Shown one piece after another: positions 1-51,172 of a DNA stretch of 64,000 nucleotides (position 1 is its first letter; every line of letters begins with the position of its first letter). The position numbers and the translations under genes were made by a program. This DNA is from Eimeria praecox (Eukaryota): the NCBI GenBank assembly GCA_963920595.1, contig OY986946.1, positions 248,001 to 312,000 on the forward strand. The letters are read 5' to 3'. The notes beneath the pieces were generated by a model. That model was not told the DNA's origin. It saw only the letters and a program-made list of their open reading frames with translations, and ran no database searches.

Positions 1-3000
1 CGCTCAACGAACGCACCTTCATTCTCTCTCTCAAACTCTCCACTCCTATACTCCACACTGTCACCACTCACCTCTGCTCCTATTTGCAAACCTAGCACAA
101 TCCACCACGCCTTTACAGCCACTTCGCGGCGGACAACTAGCTCACTTCCTGTGAACAACCATTCCTAATGCCCCACACCTTGTTAACGTTAACGCACCAT
201 GCTACCCTCTCTGCACATACCCCGACCCAGGCGAAATAGAGTCAACACCTGCCTCTGCTCCTGAATGCAAACCCACATCAAAACATGCGCCTATACAGGA
301 AGGCCGCAGCAAACGATCTAACTCACCTTCTGTCAAACACAGCACCCACTCTCACACACCATCCGCTCCAAGCCCACCTGCCTCCGCTCTCTGCATGTGT
401 CCCTTACCATACTCAACAGCCATAACACCTGCCTCTCGTACGAAATCGCAACCTATCCCAAATCGTCGGTGTCTCTAGTCAGCATGGGCACCCTTGAGCA
501 CCTTCTGTAAAACACCACAACTACGCCAGCACATGCAGCTTATCCTGAATGCGCCTTCTTGCTCTCCCTTCTTATATCTGCCTCCAGCCATCTGCCCCCA
601 TGCTTAACGCCTCCAAGACATGCCTGCGCTGCTGAATGGGCATCTAGCTGAAATAACCCTCTTCCCTAAAAATCAACAATCAACACAAGCCACCATGCGC
701 ACCTTCTGTGAAACATCACACCTACTCCCGCACACCATGCTCCCTCAACACCCATTGCTGCTCTATCTCCACATACCCATATCCCTCTCCAAAAGCACCT
801 CCTCAAATACCTGCCTCTGCGTCCCAGTGCAAGCGCACATCATATCGACAGCCTGCCTAAACAAGCTGCCCCCAACCGCTTTGCGCACCCTCTGGAAAAC
901 ATCACACCTGCTACAATACGCCATGCCCGCTCAGCCTATACCAGCCCCCACACCTCGAAATACTTGACACGATCGCCACCGTCATCTGCCCTCATGTGCC
1001 AAAGTTTCTCAAACAACACATGCGTACAAACACGCCACTTCGGACCACCAACACACCTCCTGTGAAACACCACACCCACTGCCATACACCATACACAGTC
1101 ACCCCACCTAGCTGCTCCCTCTTAGCACGCCCCCCACCCCTACAGTACAACGTTCATCATCACATCCGCCTCAGACCAAGCAAGCCCTACCCATACCACG
1201 CGTGCTCACATAAACACCAACACCTCACGATACGCACTTCCTGCGAAACACCACATCCTCTCCCACACACACTGCACCCTCAAAACATTCTCCACCCGCC
1301 CCCTGCAGACAGTTATCGGTCGGTCCCCATCAACTCCAAATAAAATCCCTGATCACCCTCATCAACCCAAACAAACATCAAACCGCCCTCCTGCGTCTGT
1401 AGACGTTCCAGCGTACACAGCCCTACTCACCTCCTGTGAAACACCATGTAGATATCTACTCCCACGCAGCATACGCGCTCAACGAACGCACCTTCATTCT
1501 CTCTCTCAAACTCTCCACTCCTATACTCCACACTGTCACCACTCACCTCTGCTCCTATTTGCAAACCTAGCACAATCCACCACGCCTTTACAGCCACTTC
1601 GCGGCGGACAACTAGCTCACTTCCTGTGAACAACCATTCCTATTGCCCCACACCTTGTTAACGTTAACGCACCATGCTACCCTCTCTGCACATACCCCGA
1701 CCCAGGCGAAATAGAGTCAACACCTGCCTCTGCTCCTGAATGCAAACCCACATCAAAACATGCGCCTATACAGGAAGGCCGCAGCAAACGATCTAACTCA
1801 CCTTCTGTCAAACACAGCACCCACTCTCACACACCATCCGCTCCAAGCCCACCTGCCTCCGCTCTCTGCATGTGTCCCTTACCATACTCAACAGCCATAA
1901 CACCTGCCTCTCGTACGAAATCGCAACCTATCCCAAATCGTCGGTGTCTCTAGTCAGCATGGGCACCCTTGAGCACCTTCTGTAAAACACCACAACTACG
2001 CCAGCACATGCAGCTTATCCTGAATGCGCCTTCTTGCTCTCCCTTCTTATATCTGCCTCCAGCCATCTGCCCCCATGCTTAACGCCTCCAAGACATGCCT
2101 GCGCTGCTGAATGGGCATCTAGCTGAAATAACCCTCTTCCCTAAAAATCAACAATCAACACAAGCCACCATGCGCACCTTCTGTGAAACATCACACCTAC
2201 TCCCGCACACCATGCTCCCTCAACACCCATTGCTGCTCTATCTCCACATACCCATATCCCTCTCCAAAAGCACCTCCTCAAATACCTGCCTCTGCGTCCC
2301 AGTGCAAGCGCACATCATATCGACAGCCTGCCTAAACAAGCTGCCCCCAACCGCTTTGCGCACCCTCTGGAAAACATCACACCTGCTACAATACGCCATG
2401 CCCGCTCAGCCTATACCAGCCCCCACACCTCGAAATACTTGACACGATCGCCACCGTCATCTGCCCTCATGTGCCAAAGTTTCTCAAACAACACATGCGT
2501 ACAAACACGCCACTTCGGACCACCAACACACCTCCTGTGAAACACCACACCCACTGCCATACACCATACACAGTCACCCCACCTAGCTGCTCCCTCTTAG
2601 CACGCCCCCCACCCCTACAGTACAACGTTCATCATCACATCCGCCTCAGACCAAGCAAGCCCTACCCATACCACGCGTGCTCACATAAACACCAACACCT
2701 CACGATACGCACTTCCTGCGAAACACCACATCCTCTCCCACACACACTGCACCCTCAAAACATTCTCCACCCGCCCCCTGCAGACAGTTATCGGTCGGTC
2801 CCCATCAACTCCAAATAAAATCCCTGATCACCCTCATCAACCCAAACAAACATCAAACCGCCCTCCTGCGTCTGTAGACGTTCCAGCGTACACAGCCCTA
2901 CTCACCTCCTGTGAAACACCATGTAGATATCTACTCCCACGCAGCATACGCGCTCAACGAACGCACCTTCATTCTCTCTCTCAAACTCTCCACTCCTATA

Positions 3001-4840
3001 CTCCACACTGTCACCACTCACCTCTGCTCCTATTTGCAAACCTAGCACAATCCACCACGCCTTTACAGCCACTTCGCGGCGGACAACTAGCTCACTTCCT
3101 GTGAACAACCATTCCTATTGCCCCACACCTTGTTAACGTTAACGCACCATGCTACCCTCTCTGCACATACCCCGACCCAGGCGAAATAGAGTCAACACCT
3201 GCCTCTGCTCCTGAATGCAAACCCACATCAAAACATGCGCCTTTACAGGAAGGCCGCAGCAAACGATCTAACTCACCTTCTGTCAAACACAGCACCCACT
3301 CTCACACACCATCCGCTCCAAGCCCACCTGCCTCCGCTCTCTGCATGTGTCCCTTACCATACTCAACAGCCATAACACCTGCCTCTCGTACGAAATCGCA
3401 ACCTATCCCAAATCGTCGGTGTCTCTAGTCAGCATGGGCACCCTTGAGCACCTTCTGTAAAACACCACAACTACGCCAGCACATGCAGCTTATCCTGAAT
3501 GCGCCTTCTTGCTCTCCCTTCTTATATCTGCCTCCAGCCATCTGCCCCCATGCTTAACGCCTCCAAGACATGCCTGCGCTGCTGAATGGGCATCTAGCTG
3601 AAATAACCCTCTTCCCTAAAAATCAACAATCAACAGAAGCCACCATGCGCACCTTCTGTGAAACATCACACCTACTCCCGCACACCATGCTCCCTCAACA
3701 CCCACTGCTGCTCTATCTCCACATACCCATATCCCTCTCCAAAAGCACCTCCTCAAATACCTGCCTCTGCGTCCCAGTGCAAGCGCACATCATATCGACA
3801 GCCTGCCTAAACAAGCTGCCCCCAACCGCTTTGCGCACCCTCTGGAAAACATCACACCTGCTACAGTACGCCATGCCCGCTCAGCCTATACCAGCCCCCA
3901 CACCTCGAAATACTTGACACGTTCGCCACCGCCATCTGCCCTCATGTGCCAAAGTTTCTCAAACAAAACATGCGTACAAACACGCCACTTCGGACCACCA
4001 ACACACCTCCTGTGAAACACCACACCCACTGCCATACACCATACACAGTCACCCCACCTAGCTGCTCCCTCTTAGCACGCCCCCCACCCCTACAGTACAA
4101 CGTTCATCATCACATCCGCCTCAGACCAAGCAAGCCCTACCCATACCACGCGTGCTCACATAAACACCAACACCTCACGATACGCACTTCCTGCGAAACA
4201 CCACATCCTCTCCCACACACACTGCACCCTCAAAACATTCTCCACCCGCCCCCTGCAGACAGTTATCGGTCGGTCCCCATCAACTCCAAATAAAATCCCT
4301 GATCACCCTCATCAACCCAAACAAACATCAAACCGCCCTCCTGCGTCTGTAGACGTTCCAGCGTACACAGCGCTACTCACCTCCTGTGAAACACCATGTA
4401 GATATCTACTCCCACGCAGCATACGCGCTCAACGAACGCACCTTCATTCTCTCTCTCAAACTCTCCACTCCTATACTCCACACTGTCACCACTCACCTCT
4501 GCTCCTATTTGCAAACCTAGCACAATCCACCACGCCTTTACAGCCACTTCGCGGCGGACAACTAGCTCACTTCCTGTGAACAACCATTCCTATTGCCCCA
4601 CACCTTGTTAACGTTAACGCACCATGCTACCCTCTCTGCACATACCCCGACCCAGGCGAAATAGAGTCAACACCTGCCTCTGCTCCTGAATGTAAACCCA
4701 CATCAAAACATGCGCCTATACAGGAAGGCCGCAGCAAACGATCTAACTCACCTTCTGTCAAACACAGCACCCACTCCCACACACCATCCGCTCCAAGCCC
4801 ACCTGCCTCTCTCTCTGCATGTATCCCTTCCCAGACTCAA
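1..4840. repeat. Tandem array of a 1,475-bp unit, ~3.3 near-identical copies (continues off the left edge). Each unit is 8 diverged ~184-bp subunits.
   Basis: Identical ORF-track hits recur at 620/2095/3570 and 996/2471/3946 (offset 1475). The subunit motif cac-NNN-ctg(t/c/g)gaaacaccac recurs every 168-201 bp. The + strand is strongly C/A-rich. Similarity ends at ~4840. Confidence 0.97.
146..4754 (-). CDS. Candidate array of 26 three-nucleotide micro-exons encoding K(EEEERKKK)3E, an ER/K-type charged helix segment (partial gene)
   Basis: Exons start at + coordinates 146, 327, 502, 703, 889, 1057, 1238 and 1431, repeating at +1475 and +2950, plus 4571 and 4752. On the minus strand each is CAG|NNN|GTG with codons GAA, AAG, AAG, AAG, AGG, GAG, GAA, GAG and donors GTGAGC, GTGAGT, GTGCTC, GTGCGC, GTGCGC, GTGTGT, GTGCGT, GTGAGT. 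Introns are 165-198 nt. Phase 0 is assumed. Confidence 0.75.
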
Positions 4841-7299
4841 GGGGTCCAACATTTAATGTGCTGACGCTGCCGTGTGGTGTTTTCAGAGGGCATGCGGCAT
4901 GCGTCCGAGGTTAGAAACGCAACGGTCAACCTTGCAGATGCTTAGCGGCAGGGTCATGTCAGCTGGCATCTCTCCCGAGTATTCACTGAGGTTTTCAATG
5001 CACTCAGCATTCTTTGCTTCCTGCAGGTACTTCGGTTCCAGGTTGCTAGCCTTAGCATCGGAGGCATGCCTTTTAAGCATAAGACGACCACCATATGCTA
5101 CTTGCTGCAATGCCTCACAGCATTTTGCAAAACATGATAAACCCCGCCTTTTGTCTGCTGCTTGTTAGTCAGTAATTACGCATGGCGAGCAGTTTCCTTT
5201 AGTGGCTTCTCCCAGTGGGTCACTCTACTCTTCACCCTGTCACCGTGAAGCTCCACGATGCGCATGCTGCACAAATGCACTGCAAATACATCTTCTCGTT
5301 AAAACCTCAGGACATGGGATGGACACGAAGACGCAGATGGTGGTGATGGAGACCTACTTTCTTCATGCATCACTTGCTACAAGGATAAATTGTGGCTTGT
5401 GATACACCGAGGCTAACAGCAAAGGCAACTAACGATCGATATCCCCTACGGAAACAGCGTTTTCAGAACATCACGAGCCGTGCCCGCCTTCGTGCTTACC
5501 CCTGTCACCAGATGATGCAGGTGCCATGTTTCTGAACAGAAATTGCTCGACAGCCGCATAAGCATAACTAAGGCTCCTTAGCTCACCGGCCGCATTATAT
5601 ATGTGCAAACGACTTAGCATCTCTATCGGAAGCGTTGAGCATGCGGAGCTGAGAAACCCTCCTGCAAAGCCAGTCATCCAGGCAGCACGCCGAACCACTG
5701 TTAAGGCATCCGCACGCTGGAGAGCTAAATGCATTGGCGTGCCTCTCTCAGGATCAGTTCCAAGCTGCGTGCTGTAAACGCGTCCAATCACGGCCAATCC
5801 AGTGCACTGGCGTCCGCACTCTCCTTCCTACTCCCAGAGGGCCCGTCCTGTTCTGGAGCTGTTCCCCATCAGCACGCGAACCGCGGGTGATGGGAAAGGC
5901 GTGTTGGCTGTTTTGAACCGGTGCAGATGTACCTTCTGGACTCCTGAATGCCGGTAGGCAGTCAGAGTGGCTCCTGTGATGCGGGTCATCCGCTGCCCGC
6001 CCTAACCTATTCGTCATTTTCGCACATTCCAGCAGACAGTGCCCGGATGCGCTCCATCGCTGCAGTGAGAGGCATTCATTACTAATGCCCACCGTCACGC
6101 TGCATAAGCAGGCTCTTCAGGGCAGAGAATGACAAGCCTGTTTAACGATGAAGGGGCGACGGCGTAAGCAGCGTGAACCGCGAGCCGCACACCAGCGCGG
6201 TTTGTGAAGATTCCTGATCCACATACGGAGCTAGTGCCAATACGAAGCAGGACGACTAAACGCCTGCTTAGGCAGTGAGGACCTTAGTTGTCCGTACCCA
6301 ATCAAGCTACTGCATATATCGCAGGAAGCATTGCTGTTCAGCCTAACACCACAACCACGTGTTAGGGGTTGCAATGCCGAACGGCAAGGTGAAATTGAAC
6401 ACTTTTTCTGCTGCTTGCGTAGGAGCTGCGGCATGGTAGGCATCTCCTGGCTTCTCTGAACGCCATACTTTACCGCACCCGTCAACGCCTTAAAGCCTCC
6501 CGATATGTATAACTCTCCAGTGCATTGCAACATCGCTGGTTAGAAACTACAATAAAGACACGGAGTTGGCATTTAGAAGCAAGCCTACTCTCTGTAAGCA
6601 TCACTAGCTACAAGCACACTTGCTTCCTGAAACAGCAGCGGCGCACAGGCAAGGAAACCTGGCGCGCAAATGACACTTCAAAAGCCATCCACAGCATTAA
6701 ACGACATCCTCCATGCCTATGCTAGCAGACGATGCTTCTGCCAAGGCTGTCAACAGTCAACGCTCAATTTCTCCGTAGAATTGTAGGTGGTCATGGATCT
6801 AATCCTTGTCACTGCACGTGCTGGGGTCACCTGCTAAACGAGTTTGCAGAGGTTCACTCAGCTTTGAACTGCTGCTCAGAACCCTGTTGCTTATCAACGT
6901 GCACGCATTGAAACTCGGTTGCGGTGTGTGTGGGACACGCTCGTGGTTATCGACGGCAGCCCATTTGCGGTGTTGGGGCCCACCGGCCAACTTGTGCGCG
7001 TTCGAAACCCTACCCATAATATTTGTCACAAACTACGAGCGTGAAGTGTTTACCACACGCTGAATCACCACTATGCGCATTCCTGGGTGCTAGTGGCTTC
7101 GGCACAACCGCTGAAGGACCCTCCCAGGATATATGGTGCAGCCGTGCTTCTCCAGCAGCCAAGAAGAGCATCGCCATTCGCACTCGGCATCTTTCCTTGT
7201 CTTCTTACCCAGTCCCGCCAAATCTCTTCGCTAGCGAGCAAAACGCTGAAAAATGCCGATATGTTTAGGATTTTTCTGGAGCTATCAACTCTGGCCTGC

Positions 7300-10200
7300 A
7301 AATACCCGGCCGACAGCAAATGGAGTCATTGATCCTTTACAGTCGAATCGTCTACGCTCAGGCATTACACATCTCTATCATGTCTGGGTATTCCTGGCTA
7401 GTCCTGCTTGCGCACAGGCTGTACAGATAGATGAAATGCCGGTATTGTGGAGAGGGTGAAGCCTTCACAACTAATTATGGAAGGGTTGAAACCTATCGTC
7501 CAGAAACTGCATGAAGCGACTAGTGTGAGCGACACCGCTTGTTACATTGAAGCATTGAGCAAACAACTTGTGTTCTGCGTAAAGGGATGCTAACGGCGTA
7601 TTGCAGACAACATACGTCGAGCCATGCCAAACCCCCAACGCCTTCACCGCAGAAACATCTAATGCGAGCTGCCGTCGCCTCAACACACGACCAATATGAC
7701 GTAACCGTTACGCTACACTCTCTTGCTGCACCGCATTCTTTGTCGGTGTATCACCTCCGCTCCTACAAGATTCGCATTCCCATTAACCTGACGTTCCACC
7801 TACTCGCATGATAAAACACCTCAACAAGCGTCACTGCGCCGGGCGGTCGTCCAAAGATATGCTACGGAGAGCGGGCAATATAGCATGAGTCTAACTGGTG
7901 GTGGCAGTGGCAAGCGGCCTGCTTCATCCCAAGCGCCCGTCCGATTCTCACGCGCAAGCCGGCTCCTGCCCTGCTGCGGATTTTGGAGCCAGTGAAGATA
8001 GGCTAAAAGCCGCTAACATCCGTTGCCCACATGTTGTCCTGATGCTTACCATGGCGCTGAGATATTAACGCCCATCCCAAAGTCCCGACGGCATTGCTGT
8101 TGCTTCGGCTAGCAATGCAACAGTAGTTTGCCACTCTGCCTCACGGAGAAACGTGTGAACACCCCAACTACTTGGGACTGTGAAGTTCCCTTGTGTAGCC
8201 TTGTGGAGAACTGTAGTGATCGCCGCTTGGCCGACACATCTAGAGCGGCATTAGAACGCGAGTATACCTCCTTGCATCCCCCCGAACCTTCGCTGCCCTT
8301 AACGCCAGTGCATGACACAACTGTAGGCAAGGGAATGAACGGCAATGAACAGAATGTCGTAGGCCCTAATCAACGTGCCTCCCTGTGTTGCTGATTTAGC
8401 GGGGTAGGCAGCTCGACGGAGGTCTGGTGGATGCGGAAACGCACTGGCTGCACAGAAGTGCACGATAACGCAGCAACATCCAGCTTACGCTCGCTAGATG
8501 CCACTCGCCTAGCGCAAAGTGTTCGTTTGCGTGCAAAGCCCTGCTTCAAAATGCTGATGAGCGTTGGCATTTTAGCAGCCTTCAGCCCGGGGATGCAAAT
8601 GGCCGGCCGACAGCAAATGGAGTCATTGATCTTTTACAGTCGAATCGTCTACGCTCAGGCATTACACATCTCCATCATGTCTGGGTATTCCTGGCTAGTC
8701 CTGCTTGCGCACAGGCTGTACAGATAGATGAAATGCCGGTATTGTGGAGAGGGTGAAGGCTTCACAACTAATTATGGAAGGGTTGAAACCTATCGTCCAG
8801 AAACTGCATGAAGCGACTAGTGTGAGCGACACCGCTTGTTACATTGAAGCATTGAGCAAACAACTTGTGTTCTGCGTAAAGGGATGCTAACGGCGTATTG
8901 CAGACAACATACGTCGAGCCATGCCAAACCCCCAACGCTTTCACCGCAGAAACATCTAATGCAAGCTGCCGTCGCCTCAACACACGACCAATATGACGTA
9001 ACCGTTACGCTACACTCTCTTGCGGCACCGCATTCTTTGTCGGTGTATCACCTCCGCTCCTACAAGATTCGCATTCCCATTAACCTGACGTTCCACCTAC
9101 TCGCATGATAAAACACCTCAACAAGCGTCACTGCGCCGGGCGGTCGTCCAAAGATATGCTACGGAGAGCGGGCAATATAGCATGAGTCTAACTGGTGGTG
9201 GCAGTGGCAAGCGGCCTGCTTCATCCCAAGCGCCCGTCCGATTCTCACGCGCAAGCCGGCTCCTGCCCTGCTGCGGATTTTGGAGCCAGTGAAGATAGGC
9301 TAAAAGCCGCTAACATCCGTTGCCCACATGTTGTCCTGATGCTTACCATGGCGCTGAGATATTAACGCCCATCCCAAAGTCCCGACGGCATTGCTGTTGC
9401 TTCGGCTAGCAATGCAACAGTAGTTTGCCACTCTGCCTCACGGAGAAACGTGTGAACACCCCAACTACTTGGGACTGTGAAGTTCCCTTGTGTAGCCTTG
9501 TGGAGAACTGTAGTGATCGCCGCTTGGCCGACACATCTAGAGCGGCATTAGAACGCGAGTATACCTCCTTGCATCCCGCCGAAGCTTCGCTGCCCTTAAC
9601 GCCAGTGCATGAAACAACTGTAGGCAAGGGAATGAACGGCAATGAACAGAATGTCGTAGGCCCTAGGCAACGTGCCTCCCTGTGTTGCTGATTTAGCGGG
9701 GTAGGCAGCTCGACGGAGGTCTGGTGGATGCGGAAACGCACTGGCTGCACAGAAGTGCACGATAACGCAGCAACATCCAGCTTACGCTCGCTAGATGCCA
9801 CTCGCCTAGCGCAAAGTGTTCGTTTGCGTGCAAAGCCCTGCTTCAAAATGCTGATGAGCGTTGGCATTTTAGCAGCCTTCAGCCCGGGGATGCAAATGGC
9901 CGGCCGACAGCAAATGGAGTCATTGATCTTTTACAGTCGAATCGTCTACGCTCAGGCATTACACATCTCCATCATGTCTGGGTATTCCTGGCTAGTCCTG
10001 CTTGCGCACAGGCTGTACAGATAGATGAAATGCCGGTATTGTGGAGAGGGTGAAGCCTTCACAACTAATTATGGAAGGGTTGAAACCTATCGTCCAGAAA
10101 CTGCATGAAGCGACTAGTGTGAGCGACACCGCTTGTTACATTGAAGCATTGAGCAAACAACTTGTGTTCTGCGTAAAGGGATGCTAACGGCGTATTGCAG

Positions 10201-11050
10201 ACAACATACGTCGAGCCATGCCAAACCCCCAACGCCTTCACCGCAGAAACATCTAATGCGAGCTGCCGTCGCCTCAACACACGACCAATATGACGTAACC
10301 GTTACGCTACACTCTCTTGCTGCACCGCATTCTTTGTCGATGTATCACCTCCGCTCCTACAAGATTCGCATTCCCATTAACCTGACGTTCCACCTACTCG
10401 CATGATAAAACACCTCAACAAGCGTCACTGCGCCGGGCGGTCGTCCAAAGATATGCTACGGAGAGCGGGCAATATAGCATGAGTCTAACTGGTGGTGGCA
10501 GTGGCAAGCGGCCTGCTTCATCCCAAGCGCCCGTCCGATTCTCACGCGCAAGCCGGCTCCTGCCCTGCTGCGGATTTTGGAGCCAGTGAAGATAGGCTAA
10601 AAGCCGCTAACATCCGTTGCCCACATGTTGTCCTGATGCTTACCATGGCGCTGAGATATTAACGCCCATCCCAAAGTCCCGACGGCATTGCTGTTGCTTC
10701 GGCTAGCAATGCAACAGTAGTTTGCCACTCTGCCTCACGGAGAAACGTGTGAACACCCCAACTACTTGGGACTGTGAAGTTCCCTTGTGTAGCCTTGTGG
10801 AGAACTGTAGTGATCGCCGCTTGGCCGACACATATAGAGCGGCATTAGAACGCGAGTATACCTCCTTGCATCCCGCCGAAGCTTCGCTGCCCTTAACGCC
10901 AGTGCATGAAACAACTGTAGGCAAGGGAATGAACGGCAATGAACAGAATGCCGTAGGCCCTAGGCAACGTGCCTCCCTGTGTTGCTGATTTAGCGGGGTA
11001 GGCAGCTCGACGGATGTCTGGCGGATGCGGAAACGCACTGGCTGCACAGA
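7300..11050. repeat. Tandem array of a 1,297-bp unit, ~2.9 copies (a further ~1.5 copies at ~13480-15370)
   Basis: Near-identical sequence at 7471/8768/10065 (offset 1297) and again at 13654. Confidence 0.95.
7416..11041 (-). CDS. Candidate Pro micro-exons in the 1,297-bp array: CCT at 7416, 8713, 10010 and CCA at 8445, 9742, 11039
   Basis: Minus strand reads tgtaCAG|CCT|GTGCGC and tgtgCAG|CCA|GTGCGT. The diverged paralogous site at 15530 keeps CAG|ACT|GTACGT. Confidence 0.45.
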
Positions 11051-11601
11051 CGTTCACGATACTGCAGCAACAGCCACTTGTGGCGCCCCCCTTTTCCATG
11101 CATATTATCCCATTGTAGCATGTTCTTCAGAAATTATCCTTGCAGCGGGTCAGGGGTGCTCGAGGTGGATGCGTCTCTATCAAATGCCTCTAACGCCTCA
11201 GTAATAGCCACCCACAGGTGCTGTACGGTGTCCAGGCTTCCCGCTGGCTCAGAGGAGGCACCAATCAGAGTGGGGCGCTTATTTTCCACGGCGGCCAGTA
11301 GTGCATACCAGAAGGATATTGGCCATGTAGTGAGCAAACCACAGTCGAATCCCTAACGTTATTCGGGCTGGAGGGCCACCCGGCAAGACGCAAAGCTGTT
11401 TGAGCGCTGGACAGGTGCAGTGCTGCTCGCAGGAGTGCTAACTTCACCGCTCATTGTTGTAGAGTTGGTGGCGCCTCCCGGAAGCGTTTCCACGCAAAGC
11501 CAGACAACAGAAAGATGACGCTTGTGCAAAGCGTGAGCGACGCCTGCGCTGTTCGCACACAAGACGCTCGCTCCGACTGCGAAAAATAGAGGCGCACTTA
11601 C

Positions 11602-11676
11602 CCAGAAACGCCATATACTGCATTGGGGATTTTCACGGCGTAGTATTGCTAATCGCGACTTGCTGCCCCCCCCCAT
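11602..11676 (-). CDS. Possible initial exon (ATG, 25 codons, phase-0 GTAAGT donor); second copy at 16093-16167
   Basis: ATG at 11676 gives MGGGSKSRLAILRRENPQCSIWRFW, followed immediately by a perfect GTAAGT. It lies just inside the 5' (minus-strand) edge of both duplicated blocks. Confidence 0.25.
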
Positions 11677-12008
11677 GCTCCGCGCGGGCTACCAGGGGAA
11701 CCGCAGGGAACGGAACGCCCTGTGGATTCCCTGTTCGTCGCGGGCTGCTTGGGAGCTCGCCGAGAGTCGTCTTGCGCACGATGCCATTGAGGCGCCGCAA
11801 CCGAAGATGAGCGCATCTCCAATTAGCAGCGGAAGAAGGGGACACCGTGTGTGGAGTAGCATATCTACTGTCACGCACTATGCTCTGTGAAACCGCCTTG
11901 TTGCTCGCTCTGCAAATATTGGTTGCCTTACTAAGCTGCTTCACCACTAGCTCATGAAACAAAAAGCACACCTTGGTACAGATAGGCCAGGATAGAGGCT
12001 GCACACAC

Positions 12009-12367
12009 CTTCTGTAAAATACCATGATTGCCGGTGGCTACCATGCTGCGTGAAAGTTCCCTGCTGCTCTGTCTGAAGATGCGCCTTTATATACTCAGAG
12101 ATATCAATACGTCTTTACAGCTGAAGGCGAACGCGCCTCAAGTTACTGGTGTGTATATACAGTCAGCGTGGGCCACCATGCTCACCTTCTGTGTAATGCC
12201 ACGTACGGTACCGCCTACCACAAGCCGATGGCCTGCCTCGGTGCACTCTCCTCAAGTATTCGTCCCATATTCAGTGACTGCACCACTAATATCTGCTCCT
12301 GAATGCGCAAGTAGGTCAAATCACTTGTAGGGGAAGGCATGCCGCATCAGGCCAGGCAGCTCACCTT
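12009..12367 (-). CDS. Three AAG (Lys) single-codon micro-exon candidates at 12365, 12186 and 12009
   Basis: ttcgCAG|AAG|GTGAGC, tacaCAG|AAG|GTGAGC and tttaCAG|AAG|GTGTGT, with introns of 176 and 174 nt. Intron sequence resembles the 1,475-bp array introns (tctgctcctgaatgc at ~12292 vs ~254). Confidence 0.65.
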
Positions 12368-12545
12368 CTGCGAAACACCACACCTGCTGCCATCCACCAG
12401 ACACCATGAATGCTCCATGTTGCCCTCCCTACAAACATCGATTCCATGTTGATTCCCCACTGGTGGATTGCTGGCCTATGACCCCAAATACAACAGTAGC
12501 TTTGGTACGATATTTTACTGGCAGGGCGCACGAGACAACCAGAGC

Positions 12546-15500
12546 TAAGGGTTACAATGCCGAGCGGCAAGGTGAAAGGGAACACTTTTTCTGCTGCTTG
12601 CGTAGGAGCTGTGGCGTGGTAGGCATCTCCTGGCTTCTCTGAACGCCATACTTTACCGCACCCGTCAACGCCTTAAAGCCTCCCGATATGTATAACTCTC
12701 CAGTGCATTGCAACATCGCTGGTTAGAAACTACAATAAAGACACGGAGTTGGCATTTAGAAGCAAGCCTACTCTCTGCAAGCATCACTAGCTACAAGCAC
12801 ACTTGCTTCCTGAAACAGCAGCGGCGCACAGGCAAGGAAACCTGGCGCGCAAATGACACTTCAAAAGCCATCCACAGCATTAAACGACATCCTCCATGCC
12901 TATGCTAGCAGACGATGCTTCTGCCAAGGCTGTCAACAGTCAACGCTCAATTTCTCCGTAGAATTGTAGGTGGTCATGGATCTAATCCTTGTCACTGCAC
13001 GTGCTGGGGCCACCTGCTAAACGAGTTTGCAGAGGTTCACTCAGCTTTGAATTGCTGCTCAGAACCCTGTTGCTTATGAACGTGCACGCATTGAAACTCG
13101 GTTGCGGTGTGTGTGGGACACGCTCGTGGTTATCGACGGCAGCCCATTTGCAGTGTTGGGGCCCACCGGCCAACTTGTGCGCGTTCGAAACCCTACCCAT
13201 AATATTTGTCACAAACTACGAGCGTGAAGTGTTTACCACACGCTGAATCACCACTATGCGCATTCCTGGGTGCTAGTGGCTTCGGCACAACCGCTGAAGG
13301 ACCCTCCCAGGATATATGGTGCAGCCGTGCTTCTCCAGCAGCCAAGAAGAGCATCGCCATTCGCACTCGGCATCTTCCCTTGTCTTCTTACCCAGTCCCG
13401 CCAAATCTCTTCGCTAGCGAGCAAAACGCTGAAAAATGCCGATATGTTTAGGATTTTTCTGGAGCTATCAACTCTGGCCTGCAAATACCCGGCCGACAGC
13501 AAATGGAGTCATTGATCCTTTACAGTCGAATCGTCTACGCTCAGGCATTACACATCTCCATCATGCCTGGGTATTCCTGGCTAGTCCTGCTTGCGCACAG
13601 GCTGTACAGATAGATGAAATGCCGGTATTGTGGAGAGGGTGAAGGCTTCATAACTAATTATGGAAGGGTTGAAACCTATCGTCCAGAAACTGCATGAAGC
13701 GACTAGTGTGAGCGACACCGCTTGTTACATTGAAGCATTGAGCAAACAACTTGTGTTCTGCGTAAAGGGATGCTAACGGCGTATTGCAGACAACATACGT
13801 CGAGCCATGCCAAACCCCCAACGCCTTCACCGCAGAAACATCTAATGCAAGCTGCCGTCGCCTCAACACACGACCAATATGACGTAACCGTTACGCTACA
13901 CTCTCTTGCGGCACCGCATTCTTTGTCGGTGTATCACCTCCGCTCCTACAAGATTCGCATTCCCATTAACCTGACGTTCCACCTACTCGCATGATAAAAC
14001 ACCTCAACAAGCGTCACTGCGCCGGGCGGTCGTCCAAAGATATGCTACGGAGAGCGGGCAATATAGCATGAGTCTAACTGGTGGTGGCAGTGGCAAGCGG
14101 CCTGCTTCATTCCAAGCGCCCGTCCGATTCTCACGCGCAAGCCGGCTCCTGCCCTGCTGCGGATTTTGGAGCCAGTGAAGATAGGCTAAAAGCCGCTAAC
14201 ATCCGTTGCCCACATGTTGTCCTGATGCTTACCATGGCGCTGAGATATTAACGCCCATCCCAAAGTCCCGACGGCATTGCTATTGCTTCGGCTAGCAATG
14301 CAACAGTAGTTTGCCACTCTGCCTCACGGAGAAACGTGTGAACACCCCAACTACTTGGGACTGTGAAGTTCCCTTGTGTAGCCTTGTGGAGAACTGTAGT
14401 GATCGCCGCTTGGCCGATACATCTAGAGCGGCATTAGAACGCGAGTATACCTCCTTGCATCCCGCCGAAGTTTCGCTGCCCTTAACGCCAGTGCATGAAA
14501 CAACTGTAGGCAAGGGAATGAACGGCAATGAACAGAATGCCGTAGGCCCTAGGCAACGTGCCTCCCTGTGTTGCTGATTTAGCGGGGTAGGCAGCTCGAC
14601 GGAGGTCTGGTGGATGCGGAAACGCACAGCCTCCACACCAGTGCACGATAACGCAGCAGCATCCAGCTTACGCTCGCTAGATGCCACTCGCCTAGCGCAA
14701 AGTGTTCGTTTGCGTGCAAAGCCCTGCTTCAAAATGCTGATGAGCGTTGGCATTTTAGCAGCCTTCAGCCCGGGGATGCAAATGGCCGGCCGACAGCAAA
14801 TGGAGTCATTGATCTTTTACAGTCGAATCGTCTACGCTCAGGCATTACACATCTCCATCATGTCTGGGTACTCCTGGCTAGTCCTGCTTGCGCACAGGCT
14901 GTACAGATAGATGAAATGCCGCTATTATGGAGGGGGTGAACCCTCCATATCTAATAGTGGAAGGGTTGTAAAGCACTGTCAAGTAATTGCTAGAACCAAT
15001 CAGCGTAAGCGACTCCGCTTGTTGCATTGAAGCATTGAAGAAAGAGCTTGTTTTCTATGGTAACGGCGTATTGCAGGCACCATTCGTCAGGCCACGTCAA
15101 ACCCCCAACGCCTTCACCGCAGAAACATCTAATGCAAGCTGCCGGCGCCTCAACACACGACCAATATGACGTAACCGTTACGCTACACTCTCTTGCGGCA
15201 CCGCATACACTGTCAGTGTATCACCTCCGCTCCTACAAGATTCGCATTCCCGTTAACCTGACGTTCCACCTACTCGCATGATAAAACACCTCAACAAGCG
15301 TCACTGCGCCGGGCGGTCGTCCAAAGATATGCTACGGAGAGCGGGCAGTCTAGCATGAGTCTAACTGGTGGTGCATGCAGCAACACCGCCAGTGCATGAA
15401 ACAACTGTAGGCAAGAGAATGAACGGCAACCAACAGAATACCGTAAGCGCTAAGCGGGACGCCTCCATAGGGTGCTGATGTAGCGGGGGTAGGCAGCTTG

Positions 15501-16210
15501 ACAGAGGTCTGGTGGATGCGGAAACGTACAGTCTGCTCGGACGTGCACGATACTGCAGCAACAGCCACTTGTGGCGCCCCCCTTTTCCATGCATATTATC
15601 CCATTGTAGCATGTTCTTCAGAAATTATCCTTGCAGCGGGTCAGGGGTGCTCGAGGTGGATGCGTCTCTATCAAATGCCTCTAACGCCTCAGTAATAGCC
15701 ACCCACAGGTGCTGTACGGTGTCCAGGCTTCCCGCTGGCTCAGAGGAGGCAACAATCAGCGTCAGGCGCTTATTTTCCACGGCGGCCAGTAGTGCATACC
15801 AGAAGGATATTGGCCATGTAGTGAGCAAACCACAATCGAATCCCTAACGTTATTCGGGCTGGAGGGCCACCCGGCAAGACGCAAAGCTGTTTGAGCGCTG
15901 GACAGGTGCAGTGCTGCTCGCAGGAGTGCTAACTTCACCGCTCATTGTCGTAGAGTTGGTGGCGCCTCCCGGAAGCGTTTCCACGCAAAGCCAGACAACA
16001 GAAAGATGACGCTTGTGCAAAGCGTGAGCGACGCCTGCGCTGTTCGCACACAAGACGCTCGCTCCGACTGCGAAAAATAGAGGCGCACTTACCCAGAAAC
16101 GCCATATACTGCATTGGGGATTTTCACGGCGTAGTATTGCTAATCGCGACTTGCTGCCCCCCTCCATGCTCCACGCGGGCTACCAGGGGAACTGCAGGAA
16201 CGCGCCTTGT
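12546..16210. repeat. Segmental duplication, copy 2 (paralogous to 6363-11720), with an internal deletion near 15370-15385
   Basis: Direct sequence match at offset 6183 on the left and ~4490 on the right. Confidence 0.92.
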
Positions 16211-16293
16211 GGCTGCACTGATCGTAGGAAGCAACCGTGCTGCTCGGGAATAGTTCTGGTACGTAAAATAACCTCAGTATTCAGGCACTGAAG

Positions 16294-16315
16294 CCCCCCC
16301 CCCCCCCCCCCCCCC
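16294..16315. repeat. Poly-C tract (C22; G22 on the minus strand)
   Basis: Directly visible homopolymer. Confidence 0.95.
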
Positions 16316-26550: not shown

Positions 26551-28473
26551 GCCCTGCGTTGATTACGCCATGCGAGTACCAGGTTCCACGTAGGACTCAG
26601 CTCTTCGGCTTACGGCGACAGCATCTCCACATCCGCTCCCCCAACGATTTCCTACCCCTCCTAAACCAACACGATCAGAGGGCTTCCAATTTGGCCTTGG
26701 CACGGCAAACTGCCAGAGAAATTTCCCGAGACAAGCTCACAGACCAACTGTGCTGCAAAGCACCCGTCTTAGCTGCGGTTCGGCGCAGTTGGTCGGTCAG
26801 GCTGGGTCTTAAACGCCTCGCATACACTTTTATTACCTTTTGCATAGTGCTGGTGGACTGTGGCATGAATCAGCCAGATCAGCGGGCGTACAGGCTAAGC
26901 AAGTGACTTCGTTGCAGCACCCACAATATTCCACACTGCAAGGTGCAAGATGCACCAACCCACAGCAGTACAGCGTCATCCTTGACCTATCGAAATTAAG
27001 GGAAGGCATCTACTAAGCTATTGCCGCTCTCTGCCGATGCAGTATCATCGTCTAGTTGCCCTGCCATTGCATATTTATCTACATGGAATGCTCAGGACAG
27101 GCCCCAGAAGATCATGCAGCTCACCTCCTGTGAGGCACCGCATCTACTGCGTCCCACCATACACCGTAAATGCAACCGCTGGTCTACGCTCCAAAGTACA
27201 TAGGCAGCTCAAGTCACGGCATAGACAGCTCACAGCAGAGACCGTACGCACAATCTGTGAAATAGCAAGGTGTGTTCACGGCGTGCTGTAAGTGTCTACT
27301 GTTACCCACCATACGCTGTGCATGTACCGTCTTGCTCTTGCCAGCCTTCTTTTGTGAGAAAGCATAAGTTGCTCAAACCACCGGTGTTCATACTTAGTCG
27401 ACACGGGCCATCCTGCGCACTTTCTGTGATGCACGACACATAATATTGCCATACAGCATATGCCGTGAACGCACACTGTTCTCCTGTACAAGCATGCATT
27501 CCAAAACCCAGTGGTGCTAAAATTTGCCGCTGTTTCATAAAGCAAACGTCGCTCAAACCATCCGCAAGCGTAGGCAGGCCGCAGGAACCCTTGAAGCTTG
27601 TCTTGTGTGAAACACCGCATCTGCTATCACTCACATTACATCGCGAACGCTCTTCTTCCTCCATTTACAAACGCCCATTCCCATATTCAGTGGCCTCAGT
27701 CCTGGCCTCTGCTCTAGGACGCAAACCTAGCACTAGCCACAGGCATGGGGTAGGACACCTCAAACGAGAGGTATGCACAGAGATGTTGCAGCAGGCAGCG
27801 ATACCCACCTCCTGTTGCAGCCAGTATGCAATCGCTGCACTCAACCTAGAATTGCGACAAACGTGCCTTCAAGTACGGAATCTACGTCCTGATGCTTCGA
27901 ATGCAATAGCTAGATTCCGATATGATCCAAGCATACTCCCCGCCTGCTGTGTCTTCCATGGCGTCGATTTCTATCCTGGCTGATGACTCCTGCCTCAGAT
28001 TTGAAGTCTGTGCACGCCCGCATCTCGTCGCATTTTCCTTCAGCCTGCTTGCAAACGGCTACAGGGCAATTCATGGCGGCAGAGCAAATGCGCGGTGTAC
28101 CCTCCGTAGCGGCGAAGGACTGTTATGGAATAAAAGTGTATTCAAATTTTATACGTGCTCAAGCATTCCGTAAGAGGCTTTCGGAGCCATAACGGTGTAG
28201 TCAATCCGTATGCCGGGGCACACGTGCATCTACAATGAGTTGGCCATGCTCAGGGGGCCAAGTGCTTTTGAGTCCCCGTTTCCTTCTACATCCGCCTATG
28301 CTTCTCAACACAAAGCTTTATCTGCCTTCACACTACCCTCATACGCGAATGCATGCACAACAATGGCTCAAACAGGATGCATTCCCCCAACATATCTCAG
28401 CGGTTTTTCACAGCCCTTACTCCAATTATTTCAGCACCTCCACTGCTGTCAGTTCAAACGATTCGCGTACTTT
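26551..28473 (-). CDS. Candidate micro-exons: AAA 28471, GAG 27809, AAA 27421, ATT 27252, GAG 27125, CCT 26892, GGC 26551 (a broken site lies at ~27603)
   Basis: All show YAG|NNN|GTR. The stretch 27605-27740 is recognisably homologous to the 1,475-bp array intron (gtgaaacacc...cctctgctc...gcaaacctagcac). Confidence 0.5.
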
Positions 28474-37100: not shown

Positions 37101-40100
37101 CCGTCTTAGCTGCGGTTCGGCGCAGTTGGTCGGTCAGGCTGGGTCTTAAACGCCTCGCATACACTTTTATTACCTTTTGCATAGTGCTGGTGGACTGTGG
37201 CATGAATCAGCCAGATCAGCGGGCGTACAGGCTAAGCAAGTGACTTCGTTGCAGCACCCACAATATTCCACACTGCAAGGTGCAAGATGCACCAACCCAC
37301 AGCAGTACAGCGTCATCCTTGACCTATCGAAATTAAGGGAAGGCATCTACTAAGCTATTGCCGCTCTCTGCCGATGCAGTATCATCGTCTAGTTGCCCTG
37401 CCATTGCATATTTATCTACATGGAATGCTCAGGACAGGCCCCAGAAGATCATGCAGCTCACCTCCTGTGAGGCACCGCATCTACTGCGTCCCACCATACA
37501 CCGTAAATGCAACCGCTGGTCTACGCTCCAAAGTACATAGGCAGCTCAAGTCACGGCATAGACAGCTCACAGCAGAGACCGTACGCACAATCTGTGAAAT
37601 AGCAAGGTGTGTTCACGGCGTGCTGTAAGTGTCTACTGTTACCCACCATACGCTGTGCATGTACCGTCTTGCTCTTGCCAGCCTTCTTTTGTGAGAAAGC
37701 ATAAGTTGCTCAAACCACCGGTGTTCATACTTAGTCGACACGGGCCATCCTGCGCACTTTCTGTGATGCACGACACATAATACTGCCATACAGCATATGC
37801 CGTGAACGCACACTGTTCTCCTATACAAGCATGCATTCCAAAACCCAGTGGCTAAAATTTGCCGCTGTTTCATAAAGCAAACGCCGCTCAAACCATCCGC
37901 AAGCGTAGGCAGGCCGCAGGAACCCTTGAAGCTTGTCTTGTGTGAAACACCGCATCTGCTATCACTCACATTACATCGCGAACGCTCTTCTTCCTCCATT
38001 TACAAACGCCCATTCCCATATTCAGTGGCCTCAGTCCTGGCCTCTGCTCTAGGACGCAAACCTAGCACTAGCCACAGGCATGGGGTAGGACACCTCAAAC
38101 GAGAGGTATGCACAGAGATGTTGCAGCAGGCAGCGATACCCACCTCCTGTTGCAGCCAGTATACAATCGCTGCACTCAACCTAGAATTGCGACAAACGTG
38201 CCTTCAAGTACGGAATCTACGTCCTGATGCTTCGAATGCAATAGCTAGATCCCGATATGATCCAAGCATACTCCCCGCCTGCTGTGTCTTCCATGGCGTC
38301 GATTTCTATCCTGGCTGATGACTCCTGCCTCAGATTTGAAGTCTGTGCACGCCCGCATCTCGTCGCATTTTCCTTCAGCCTGCTTGCAAACGGCTACAGG
38401 GCAATTCATGGCGGCAGAGCAAATGCGCGGTGTACCCTCCGTAGCGGCGAAGGACTGTTATGGAATAAAAGTGTATTCAAATTTTATACGTGCTCAAGCA
38501 TTCCGTAAGAGGCTTTCGGAGCCATAACGGTGTAGTCAATCCGTATGCCGGGGCACACGTGCATCTACAATGAGTTGGCCATGCTCAGGGGGCCAAGTGC
38601 TTTTGAGTCCCCGTTTCCTTCTACATTCGCCTATGCTTCTCAACACAAAGCTTTATCTGCCTTCACACTACCCTCATACGCGAATGCATGCACAACAATG
38701 GCTCAAACAGGATGCATTCCCCCAACATATCTCAGCGGTTCTTCACAGCCCTTACTCCAATTATTTCAGCACCTCCACTGCTGTCAGTTCAAACGATTCG
38801 CGTACTTTCTGGACACCACAGCATGCCCTTATACGAGAAACGATTCATACACCACACCTGCGCATGAGCCCACTTGACGTGCATTTGCCTCCCTGCGAAA
38901 AGCTTCCAACACACAGAAGCTGCTTGCACCTCCAAAGCCCAACACCGTCCAATGTGGCAAGCGGGTCAGCCTAGTATTAACTGGTGATGCCAATCCGTGA
39001 CAGCAAGGAGCGGAAAGCGATCGAATACTCATAGTACACTAACCGCCTATATTCGCGTGAAGACCAAGCTTTTCGGCAAATGTTGCACCAAGCGGCCACG
39101 ACCCCTCAAACTGCTTAGTGCACGCTCAGTCAAGCAGGCCCATTAACATTATCCCCCTAAACCAGATCACTGTGCGTGCCACTTACGGCCCCGCGACCGT
39201 CACAAAAGGATCCTGGCTGCCGTTAATGCCTGGTACCGCGCTATGAGGAGCCTGTGGCACCCACTTCCTGCAGCAGTTTGTAATGCCAGATTCAGTCCTG
39301 CAAATGCCAAAGGATGCGCCGCAGCACGCAGCCTTCTGATCAACAGACAAGCGCACTACCAAGGCAAAAAAGGATCCCCTTCTGCTTCCGCCATGTGTAC
39401 GCTCCCTTCCACTAAGACGCATGCACCTGAACACGCAACTGCACTTATCTTCATACTACGGGCAAGCCACCAGGAACGCAGCGTAATGACTCCGACCAGA
39501 TGCGTAGCCTAAGCACGTCTCACAGTCGCTGCACGCACGGCGTCCTGCAACCATCAAGCCACAGCACACGCACAACTGCTAATACAATCCATGTGCATAC
39601 TTCCTGGTCCGCACAGCAAACAGTTGCAAGAAAAAGTCGTTGTCACGCCGCATCTTCGCAGGACCTCGCTTACGCTGCTTTCGCTCCCAAAATACGTAAC
39701 ATACACGCCAATCGATTCTGTGTACAGCCCCTGCACACAATTCGCGATTCCCCAAATTCGGTGACAGCCATCCCACGAAGATGGTGGCTCTGCTGGATAT
39801 CGATTAATAGCTGCCACTTTTGAGAAGCCGACGATATGCTATAAACAAACAAAGCGTGAGAAAAGACACTCACGTGCCGAACACGGGATCATGTACACCG
39901 TGGCGCAGGCTGTAGCGTGCACGTGCGGTCCACCTTCGACAGCGGGACAAAGAGCACCGTCGGTTGTCAACAACGCATATGCTAAATGCGTGTAGTGGAG
40001 AGCAAAGCATGTAGGCTCGTCTCACCAGGCCATGCACCTGCCCATACTATATGTTCTCTTCCTTAGGCATACACATGTAGAGCGATTCTCCCGACCGAGT

Positions 40101-46100: not shown

Positions 46101-49100
46101 ACTGGCTAAACAGATAGTCGCGAATAGCCGAAACTCATTCCAGCAGGTTGGGTGGTCGAAACATTTGGTGGTTTTTTCAACACACGTAAGCCCAAACCTG
46201 CCTGCTGTGTGGCTGCAAAAAGCATGAATGTGTTGCTTAGTTTAAGGTTATAAAGGTGGAATGCAGACAGAACTCCTGCGTAGTCACACAGTATTGGCAA
46301 TCCCTCCGTAGTGAACCACAGCTTGCTCAGGAGGCATAATGCGTCTCTTCTTCCGGCTTCCTTTGCGGGAAATGAGTATCCATTTCACACGTTGGCACGC
46401 CTAGGTTTGACGTCGCGTCAGGGTTTTCTCCTTTCCAGTCAGTTCTCGCTCCAGCACCTTGCATTAGGAGATCGCGTTGGAATGCTTCAACAGACAGCTG
46501 CGAAAAGAAGCCGGTTTTCCACCAGACTACAAGAAGCATCAAAGCTCTGATTGAGTACAGGGTCACGCCAATGAAAGCCCCTTGAATTCCCTTGTCTCGC
46601 TAAATACGCATAATTGACAATCCATGTGTAGGGGAGCACAGCTTGGTAAGGAGCCGAGTGGCATCTCTTCTTGTGGGTCCATTTGCTCAACATAAATCTG
46701 CTGCCTACGAAACGATACGTTTTCTCTTCAATCCGCCTGTGGTCTCTGAGTGTCACACCAAGGCTACGCTAAGCACATATAAGCACCCAAGCGAATCGTC
46801 GCTCTACGCACTGGCACTCTAAATACGCTTACAATGAGAGTGCTGTTTCTGAGACGCACGTGCCACCTGTCCACTATTGCAGTCATGCCCAGCAGACCAT
46901 TCACCGTTTCCACCCAGTAAATGAGCAGTCTGACCTATGGCAACAGATTAAGGCCAACCCGTGCCTACAGCCCCTGTTGAGGCTTTCGTACGGGAGCATA
47001 TCCGCCGCCTGCTGCCCTTCAGACTGTTTCGCCTCCGTTTACAGATTCGCTGCATCCGTCCTGATTGCTCCGAGGCACTGGCAAGGCAGAATGCGGCCAT
47101 CCACTGATACGCTTAGCACTTGGCTACAGTGAGCATCGCGCTCTAACAGGTTTGACCCTATGCGGGCCTCCCTCTCGAACACAGATTCTGTTTGACGTTG
47201 TGATTCATATATGCGGACCCACGCCCTGCGTTGATTACGCCATGCGAGTACCAGGTTCGACGTAGGACTCAGCTCTTCGGCTTACGGCGACAGCATCTCC
47301 ACATCCGCTCCCCCAACGATTTCCTACCCCTCCTAAACCAACACGATCAGAGGGCTTCCAATTTGGCCTTGGCACGGCAAACTGCCAGAGAAATTTCCCG
47401 AGACAAGCTCACAGACCAACTGTGCTGCAAAGCACCCGTCTTAGCTGCGGTTCGGCGCAGTTGGTCGGTCAGGCTGGGTCTTAAACGCCTCGCATACACT
47501 TTTATTACCTTTTGCATAGTGCTGGTGGACTGTGGCATGAATCAGCCAGATCAGCGGGCGTACAGGCTAAGCAAGTGACTTCGTTGCAGCACCCACAATA
47601 TTCCACACTGCAAGGTGCAAGATGCACCAACCCACAGCAGTACAGCGTCATCCTTGACCTATCGAAATTAAGGGAAGGCATCTACTAAGCTATTGCCGCT
47701 CTCTGCCGATGCAGTATCATCGTCTAGTTGCCCTGCCATTGCATATTTATCTACATGGAATGCTCAGGACAGGCCCCAGAAGATCATGCAGCTCACCTCC
47801 TGTGAGGCACCGCATCTACTGCGTCCCACCATACACCGTAAATGCAACCGCTGGTCTACGCTCCAAAGTACATAGGCAGCTCAAGTCACGGCATAGACAG
47901 CTCACAGCAGAGACCGTACGCACAATCTGTGAAATAGCAAGGTGTGTTCACGGCGTGCTGTAAGTGTCTACTGTTACCCACCATACGCTGTGCATGTACC
48001 GTCTTGCTCTTGCCAGCCTTCTTTTGTGAGAAAGCATAAGTTGCTCAAACCACCGGTGTTCATACTTAGTCGACACGGGCCATCCTGCGCACTTTCTGTG
48101 ATGCACGACACATAATACTGCCATACAGCATATGCCGTGAACGCACACTGTTCTCCTATACAAGCATGCATTCCAAAACCCAGTGGCTAAAATTTGCCGC
48201 TGTTTCATAAAGCAAACGTCGCTCAAACCATCCGCAAGCATAGGCAGGCCGCAGGAACCCTTGAAGCTTGTCTTGTGTGAAACACCGCATCTGCTATCAC
48301 TCACATTACATCGCGAACGCTCTTCTTCCTCCATTTACAAACGCCCATTCCCATATTCAGTGGCCTCAGTCCTGGCCTCTGCTCTAGGACGCAAACCTAG
48401 CACTAGCCACAGGCATGGGGTAGGACACCTCAAACGAGAGGTATGCACAGAGATGTTGCAGCAGGCAGCGATACCCACCTCCTGTTGCAGCCAGTATACA
48501 ATCGCTGCACTCAACCTAGAATTGCGACAAACGTGCCTTCAAGTACGGAATCTACGTCCTGATGCTTCGAATGCAATAGCTAGATTCCGATATGATCCAA
48601 GCATACTCCCCGCCTGCTGTGTCTTCCATGGCGTCGATTTCTATCCTGGCTGATGACTCCTGCCTCAGATTTGAAGTCTGTGCACGCCCGCATCTCGTCG
48701 CATTTTCCTTCAGCCTGCTTGCAAACGGCTACAGGGCAATTCATGGCGGCAGAGCAAATGCGCGGTTTACCCTCCGTAGCGGCGAAGGACTGTTATGGAA
48801 TAAAAGTGTATTCAAATTTTATACGTGCTCAAGCATTCCGTAAGAGGCTTTCGGAGCCATAACGGTGTAGTCAATCCGTATGCCGGGGCACACGTGCATC
48901 TACAATGAGTTGGCCATGCTCAGGGGGCCAAGTGCTTTTGAGTCCCCGTTTCCTTCTACATCCGCCTATGCTTCTCAACACAAAGCTTTATCTGCCTTCA
49001 CACTACCCTCATACGCGAATGCATGCACAACAATGGCTCAAACAGGATGCATTCCCCCAACATATCTCAGCGGTTCTTCACAGCCCTTACTCCAATTATT

Positions 49101-51099: not shown

Positions 51100-51167
<68 letters not shown>
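51100..51167. repeat. (TA)34 microsatellite, present only in 10.3-kb unit 4
   Basis: Directly visible, and absent at the equivalent position (~40765) of unit 3. Confidence 0.97.

Positions 51168-51172
<5 letters not shown>

Follow-up and report, generated by a model that had tools for sequence, protein, structure and literature searches.

At its left end, the 64,000-nucleotide stretch of Eimeria praecox DNA analyzed in this study (contig OY986946.1, positions 248,001 to 312,000; hereafter the window, numbered from its first base) carries a tandem array of short, intron-like segments separated by gaps of exactly three bases. These gaps are, on balance, probably single-codon exons of a minus-strand protein gene, which read in phase 0 would specify an E4(R/K)4 helix of about 100 residues. 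Two narrower statements can be made more firmly from the pattern of conservation described below: the array is a real feature, very probably shaped by splicing, and it is highly likely that the splice sites of its monomers were under selection in the past.

Organization of the array

The candidate exon array occupies positions 146..4754 of the minus strand, where 26 sites of the form CAG-NNN-GTG, recognized by their splice motifs, have first-base positions running from 4754 down to 148 and fill 3.1 copies of a higher-order unit. Exon first bases on the minus strand lie at 4754, 4573, 4383, 4190, 4009, 3841, 3655, and 3454 and are then repeated every 1,475 bp, with introns of 178, 187, 190, 178, 165, 183, 198, and 172 nt in unit order. 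A preliminary description of this DNA had reported the coordinates, the triplets, the intron lengths (165-198 nt), and a sum of exons and introns of exactly 1,475 bp; recomputation gave identical values and the same 26 sites. The unit (3367..4841, minus strand, defined by motif and alignment) comprises eight monomers whose homologous introns of 165-198 nt have the donor GTG[ACT][GT], a branch-like TnA near -40, and an acceptor ending in T-T-x-x-CAG, giving a site form on the minus strand of T-T-x-x-CAG, three bases, and GTG-[ACT]-[GT]. In unit order, the putative 3-nt exons, all on the minus strand, are AAG (4752..4754; K in phase 0), whose acceptor CAG is replaced by CCG in many copies outside the window; GAA (4571..4573; E; donor GTGAGC); GAG (4381..4383; E; donor GTGAGT); GAA (4188..4190; E; donor GTGCGT); GAG (4007..4009; E; donor GTGTGT); AGG (3839..3841; R; donor GTGCGC); AAG (3653..3655; K; donor GTGCGC), the core of which is found again in two single-copy contigs outside the window; and AAG (3452..3454; K; donor GTGCTC).

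The array has the structure of a satellite with a higher-order repeat, in that monomers share 55% identity while units share 98-99.5% (98.1-99.5% in a self-comparison of the window), and its monomers are nucleosome-sized (168-201 bp). Such satellite-type structure is compatible with exons and does not exclude them. The subunits had been called highly diverged, and divergent they are, yet they are also homologous, with interior identities of 48-64% (mean 55%) and z>3 in 14 of the 28 pairs among the eight unit monomers. Repeat DNA spans positions 1-4840 and continues past the left end of the window; a Tandem Repeats Finder run with a period limit of 500 does not detect the 1,475-bp array. The array is not a plain coding repeat because 1,475 is not divisible by 3 and because its longest minus-strand open reading frame (ORF) is only 70 aa, with stops present in all six frames. 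Based on contig depth in sequencing run X1 (497 in the flank and 5,476-6,520 in the unit), about 10-13 unit copies are estimated, corresponding to 80-105 triplets over 15-19 kb, a rough figure since depth is not copy number. The minus strand of the array is strongly G-rich (plus-strand GC skew of -0.52). The same strand is G-rich in all 2-kb bins of the window (plus-strand skew of -0.01 to -0.52), which is compatible with a single long minus-strand transcription unit.

Conservation of splice signals

Both CAG and GTG are invariant in all eight unit monomers, compared to 5 of the 127 ungapped non-core columns. The eight monomers constitute an unselected set because all of them sit in the unit and none was picked for having the core; if columns are independent, six invariant core columns have a probability of (5/127)^6, or about 4e-9. 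In an alignment of 15 monomers, whose tree has a total length of 7.1 substitutions per site, 9 of the 11 columns kept in at least 14 monomers belong to the core and the remaining 143 columns supply the other 2. Donor position +5 evolves slowly in this alignment (rate 0.66) while +4 is ordinary (0.97), and the branch-like TnA at -42/-40 has T at -42 in 13 of 15 monomers and A at -40 in 12 of 15, resembling the branch-point consensus. The K4754 monomer is the sole unit monomer lacking A at -40, and the same site loses its acceptor AG in other copies. The only donor without G at +5 comes after AAG, and all triplets that do not end in G are followed by a donor with +5 G (small numbers); donor sites are known for compensation between -1 and +5, a pattern that the donors of the unit fit. 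Given that the conserved positions are CAG, GTG, +5 G, and TnA, with +4 left free, a DNA-binding box has no reason to show such a pattern. These positions support the conclusion that genuine splice signals flank the 3-nt gaps. Of the earlier proposal that the triplets are real 3-nt exons, it is this framing by conserved signals (CAG, GTG, +5 G, and TnA) that stands, while the frame, protein-level selection, and present-day function were not borne out in the same way.

The strict motif TT-x1-2-CAG-NNN-GTG, which was defined only after the sites had been seen, occurs at 8 distinct sites per unit, whereas 3,000 dinucleotide shuffles averaged 0.26 and never exceeded 3. The looser YAG-NNN-GTR, which had been expected about once per kb by chance, proved commoner on this G/T-rich strand: 12 matches were observed per 1,475-bp unit, the shuffle mean was 4.7, and 274 of the 3,000 dinucleotide shuffles contained at least 8. 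Being too frequent by chance, the loose count was dropped as an argument for exons. A mid-intron motif is also present at 4489-4504 (minus strand) and at homologous places, and one intron there reads AG, 8 nt, and GTGAGT, pairing a strong decoy donor with an acceptor that is weak. The GAGCAGAGGCAGGT-like motif at these places was considered as a second exon and rejected, as it is intact only in some monomers and has no strong acceptor.

Related monomers in the window and on other contigs

The CAG-NNN-GTG core is kept in 15 of the 17 distinct monomers of the window. Among nhmmer matches outside the training set, three of four cores are intact at 27 kb, and a fifth intact site lies at 27811. Beyond the window, paired cores with a spacing of 177 nt occur on two single-copy contigs (5,818 nt at depth 517; 999 nt at depth 551), one pair on each. 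Of these four cores, two match that of K3655 exactly over stretches of 26 and 31 nt and two differ at 5 letters, while the DNA between the paired cores does not align at 80%; the aligner favors similar cores, so this recurrence is supportive and does not amount to a formal test of conservation. On another contig, with a depth of 1,596 (about 3-fold single-copy), 12 of 142 letters differ; one of these changes falls on donor +4, whereas the E4009 acceptor, triplet, and GTG are untouched.

Upstream of the array, all on the minus strand, nhmmer located a four-monomer cluster (11843..12462) with intact AAG at 12367, 12188, and 12011 and a broken fourth core (about 11846), as well as a five-monomer cluster (27061..27815) with GAG at 27811 (weak acceptor), a broken core at 27604, AAA at 27423, ATT at 27254, and GAG at 27127. 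Second and third copies of the five-monomer cluster with the same cores lie at 37398..38150, in a triplicated 10.3-kb segment, and at 47733..48485. The 10.3-kb segment is present in about three near-identical copies (98.0-99.6%) at 18784-51099, each containing a five-monomer cluster and without a Pfam hit; a (TA)36 microsatellite at 51100-51171 breaks the last copy. Nested duplications occupy 6351-16225, where a 1,297-bp tandem unit (7227-11076) separates the 12-kb cluster from the main array, and the DNA of this region resembles insertions into monomer-type introns.

Evidence for and against a coding array

Several observations concerning the gene body, recent variation, and the reading frame weigh against the interpretation of the array as single-codon exons of a protein gene. 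Splicing of the array is a prediction from its signals. A Pfam search and an exon scan of the 64-kb window revealed neither a start nor an ordinary exon or domain: none of the 110 non-redundant ORFs of at least 86 aa had a Pfam match above the cut-off (the best sub-threshold match was PF19582, at 16.7 bits versus a cut-off of 27), and the exon scan of the DNA outside the array yielded 21 candidates of 20-500 nt, all within monomer clusters. Each unit also has 13 further donor-like GT sites of at least 6 bits. In the upstream clusters, two cores are broken and one triplet would encode Ile, and the clusters lie 7-15 kb apart, with repeat debris in between. At position 4756, the A of the K4754 acceptor AG, the sole X1 contig reads CCG, as does 45% of the summed depth of a second run, X2; the two runs represent one sample that may be the source of the window itself and are not independent. 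By copy depth, the K4754-type acceptor, which is CAG in all four window copies, is missing from at least about half of the units. Among 17 recent single-nucleotide polymorphism (SNP) sites in the array, a count that left out indels and 11 rows carried only by two diverged contigs, AG/GT was hit once versus 0.38 expected, so ongoing purifying selection is not visible (at low power). The two runs (X1 and X2, kind of run not stated) have no bearing either way on expression: both cover all 30 bins including the flanks, as DNA would, and none of the 7 joints in 3367-7200 has GT..AG ends.

It is possible, though we consider it unlikely, that the array is a recently dead relic, in which once-real 3-nt exons lost their function and a block of eight monomers afterwards spread neutrally as a higher-order tandem repeat. 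A relic would accommodate the commonness of the AG-destroying variant, the lack of depletion of recent SNPs at AG/GT, the broken cores and long insertions upstream, and the missing ordinary exon in 64 kb. The CCG variant can be read either as decay or as a tolerated change, however, and need not mean decay because the frame survives when a 3-nt exon is lost. Moreover, none of the 48 CAG/GTG bases of the eight monomers has changed, which limits the time since any loss of function to under about 6% divergence, compared to terminal branches of 0.26-0.58 on the monomer tree, and intact cores recur at other loci.

The joined triplets reproduce the K-EEEERKKK repeats that the preliminary description had obtained in phase 0. 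All three frames are open, with phase 0 giving an E4(R/K)4 repeat and the other two giving RKRKRGRR or GRGREEEE, and the frame is unanchored because no ordinary exon was found in the window. The pattern of an ER/K single alpha-helix (SAH), rich in E, K, and R, without a hydrophobic seam and with opposite charges at i+3 and i+4, is seen in phase 0 only, so the earlier assignment to this class holds for that frame and fails for the other two. In the phase-0 octad, 8 of 8 i,i+4 pairs and 6 of 8 i,i+3 pairs are oppositely charged; for the E4(R/K)3 heptad of CCG units the figures are 6 of 7 for i+4 and 6 of 7 for i+3. The third triplet position changes fastest on the 15-monomer tree (rate 0.98 versus 0.66 and 0.63), and three of four third-position changes are synonymous in phase 0, as counted by hand on the tree from triplet evidence of about eight changes in all. 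This variability leans to phase 0, which would be fairly likely if the array is spliced into mRNA. The E4/K4 block order, on the other hand, had been taken as a sign of protein-level selection, which was not established: 8 of 70 arrangements are equally blocked (p=0.11), and the four E monomers cluster with an ultrafast bootstrap (UFBoot) value of 58 when the core is included, while E4009 moves to another group when the core is masked. The grouping of E monomers on the tree means that duplication history could produce the order, and purine triplets are in any case favored by the splice-site consensus and by purine-rich enhancers. Given the 8/70 arrangements and the weak E clade, the order was dropped as proof of selection on the protein.

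A related alternative, to which we assign a slightly lower and likewise small probability, is that the array is spliced into a product other than an ER/K helix, either in another frame (RKRKRGRR or GRGREEEE) or as non-coding or untranslated sequence in which purines are kept for splicing. The openness of all three frames allows this, changes in frame +1 are mostly synonymous or K/R-conservative (hand count on the tree), and AAG and GAG fit both the splice-site consensus and purine enhancers. Against such a product, variation is highest at the third triplet position, which corresponds to phase-0 wobble and is the opposite of conservation at donor -1, a weak argument given the few changes. In addition, the exons of the fungal precedent discussed below are described as codon-sized in the accessible part of the source (PMC4986451).

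A true satellite, whose nucleosome-sized monomers, 8-mer higher-order repeat, and conserved protein-binding box merely resemble splice sites, would explain the monomer size and higher-order structure but is very improbable, as the conserved positions correspond to a donor and an acceptor plus, 40 nt upstream, a distinct branch-like site, while +4 is free and the triplet variable, and as the monomers also occur in small single-copy clusters. A three-core spaced pattern, used to look for relatives, gave no locus in viral contigs, 15 in metagenomes, and 4 in prokaryote genomes, and all 19 were examined. Twelve lie inside ORFs of 301-743 aa, three of which represent one 48-nt coding repeat, and the other seven have no regular array (L001-3 and L005, which are one sequence, L007, L009, and L018). 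The 48-nt coding tandem repeat (L012, whole, L014, and L015; ORFs of 468-743 aa) has CAG-ATG-GTGAG every 48 nt and is a non-splicing look-alike, showing, in favor of a satellite, that CAG-NNN-GTGAG can recur without splicing; this mimic sits in long ORFs, whereas the array does not. No relatives of the array were found among the viral, metagenome, and prokaryote collections, which hold few eukaryotes, and Rfam gave 0 matches in the window. Finally, recursive (ratchet) splice sites, zero-length exons cutting a very long intron into pieces, are the least probable explanation: the region could belong to a long intron, but AG directly precedes GT at only 5 of the 8 triplets (GAA, GAA, and AGG lack it), the invariant CAG lies three bases upstream, and steps of 170-200 nt need no recursive removal.

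Proposed mechanism and significance

As the sequence shows, the array originated from one intron-plus-triplet monomer duplicated long ago, the copies of which drifted to about 55% identity while the donor, branch-like site, and acceptor were kept; a block of eight monomers was amplified recently, about 10-13 times. If the triplets are single-codon exons, there is no room on such a 3-nt exon for two spliceosomes at the same time, so the introns would be recognized across the intron and removed serially, each removal adding one codon to a growing upstream exon, and the purine-rich spliced product may itself serve as an enhancer. Skipping of any exon would preserve the frame, so that transcripts would vary in helix length and register, and CCG at the acceptor would leave one K exon unused, turning the octad into an E4(R/K)3 heptad. 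The long charged helix could act as a spacer or lever of variable length, with the remainder of the gene presumably lying beyond the window. Going further, one may tentatively picture a living gene, a proposal that we regard as doubtful but worth stating, in which one exon for each residue would build up a helical spacer roughly 100 residues and 15 nm long (0.15 nm per residue). Three things would tune its length and charge register: the number of 8-exon units, varying as in a satellite, the acceptor change from 8 to 7 residues, and in-frame skipping of single codons. Further arrays of this kind would then exist elsewhere in the genome.

If the array is spliced, about 18 kb of DNA that would be discarded by repeat-masking and gene finders encodes about 100 amino acids, and some nucleosome-sized higher-order "satellites" would in fact be coding exon arrays. 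The locus would also provide a natural test bed for the serial removal of dozens of introns around 3-nt exons, including the order of removal, the rate of skipping, and the role of purine enhancers, and would show that codon-sized exon arrays, known from variable immune-type receptors, also occur in a structural domain of low complexity. Under the boldest proposal, a molecular ruler of residue resolution would lie inside DNA annotated as satellite, with further such arrays in the same genome.

Other features of the window

A long G run is present on the minus strand at about 16294-16315. Dispersed elements of 100-260 bp, 70-75% identical and in one orientation, occur at 21.4k, 22.8k, 26.5k, 32.9k, 53.5k, 53.8-55.3k, 58.4-58.6k, 60.4-60.7k, and 62.5-62.8k and are probably old mobile-element debris. 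An apparent enrichment of the motif TGCATGC disappears after Markov correction (14 observed versus 17 expected in 29,224 non-redundant bases). A 12,809-nt record of run X1 matches the monomer at 3868-4042 at about 90% with a depth of 25, 1/20 of single-copy depth, and may stem from a second genotype or a related organism, sequenced in the same run and carrying a related array.

Comparison with known systems

Schistosome micro-exon genes (MEGs) had been offered as the comparison for the array, but its nearest precedent is, on the present analysis, the codon-sized exon arrays of Tuber. In Tuber melanosporum, nank (NACHT-ANK) genes contain multiple or tens of codon-sized exons that are alternatively spliced, according to the accessible parts of PMC4986451 and PMC13449251, which cite Iotti et al. 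2012. The two layouts share long successions (tens) of codon-sized exons, candidate ones here, each of which has introns of its own on either side, and both would allow in-frame skipping; the window has 26 consecutive AG-/GT-flanked 3-nt segments (8/8 per unit), whose signals are kept while the intron interiors diverge. The systems differ in that the Tuber exons diversify an NLR-type receptor, whereas here the triplets are low-complexity purines and no NACHT or ankyrin domain had a Pfam match above the cut-off in the 110 window ORFs, although the gene may extend beyond the window. In addition, a block of eight monomers has here been amplified as a near-identical higher-order repeat, and splicing is predicted from sequence.

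In the accessible part of a study of Schistosoma mansoni, MEG exons are 3/6-81 bp, mostly 15 bp, with 10-20 per gene, introns of 0.1-5 kb, and a signal peptide (bioRxiv 10.1101/2023.06.21.545858). As far as that source goes, MEGs resemble the array in having many very short exons, mostly multiples of 3, that are missed by automatic annotation. They differ in exon size, since all candidate exons here are 3 nt, 26 of them in the window and probably about 100 in total, with homologous introns of 165-198 nt, and no signal-peptide exon was found within the window. Plant micro-exons of 1-15 nt demonstrate that 3-nt and even 1-nt exons are spliced, with phases 0, 1, and 2 represented by 16, 21, and 8 clusters in the accessible part of PMC8831610; as described there, these are mostly single exons between ordinary ones and in any phase, in contrast to the long homogeneous array of the window.

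With regard to the predicted product, the available text of PMC5347031 describes opposite charges at i,i+4 spacing as defining or stabilizing SAHs, and that of PMC5812594 gives EEEEKKK as the top-scoring SAH reference repeat, to which the heptad expected from CCG units is close. Like ER/K SAHs, the hypothetical phase-0 product would consist only of E, K, and R with opposite i,i+4 and i,i+3 charges. Modulation of SAH length by alternative splicing is termed rare in these sources, and one residue per exon is not described in their accessible parts (PMC5347031, PMC5812594). No one-codon-per-exon charged repeat was found in the literature searched, most subscription journals being outside its coverage. 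The codon-exon layout is not new, having a printed precedent in Tuber; the new elements are introns that are long and diverged, amplification of a higher-order unit in the manner of a satellite, and a charged product of low complexity predicted from the triplets.

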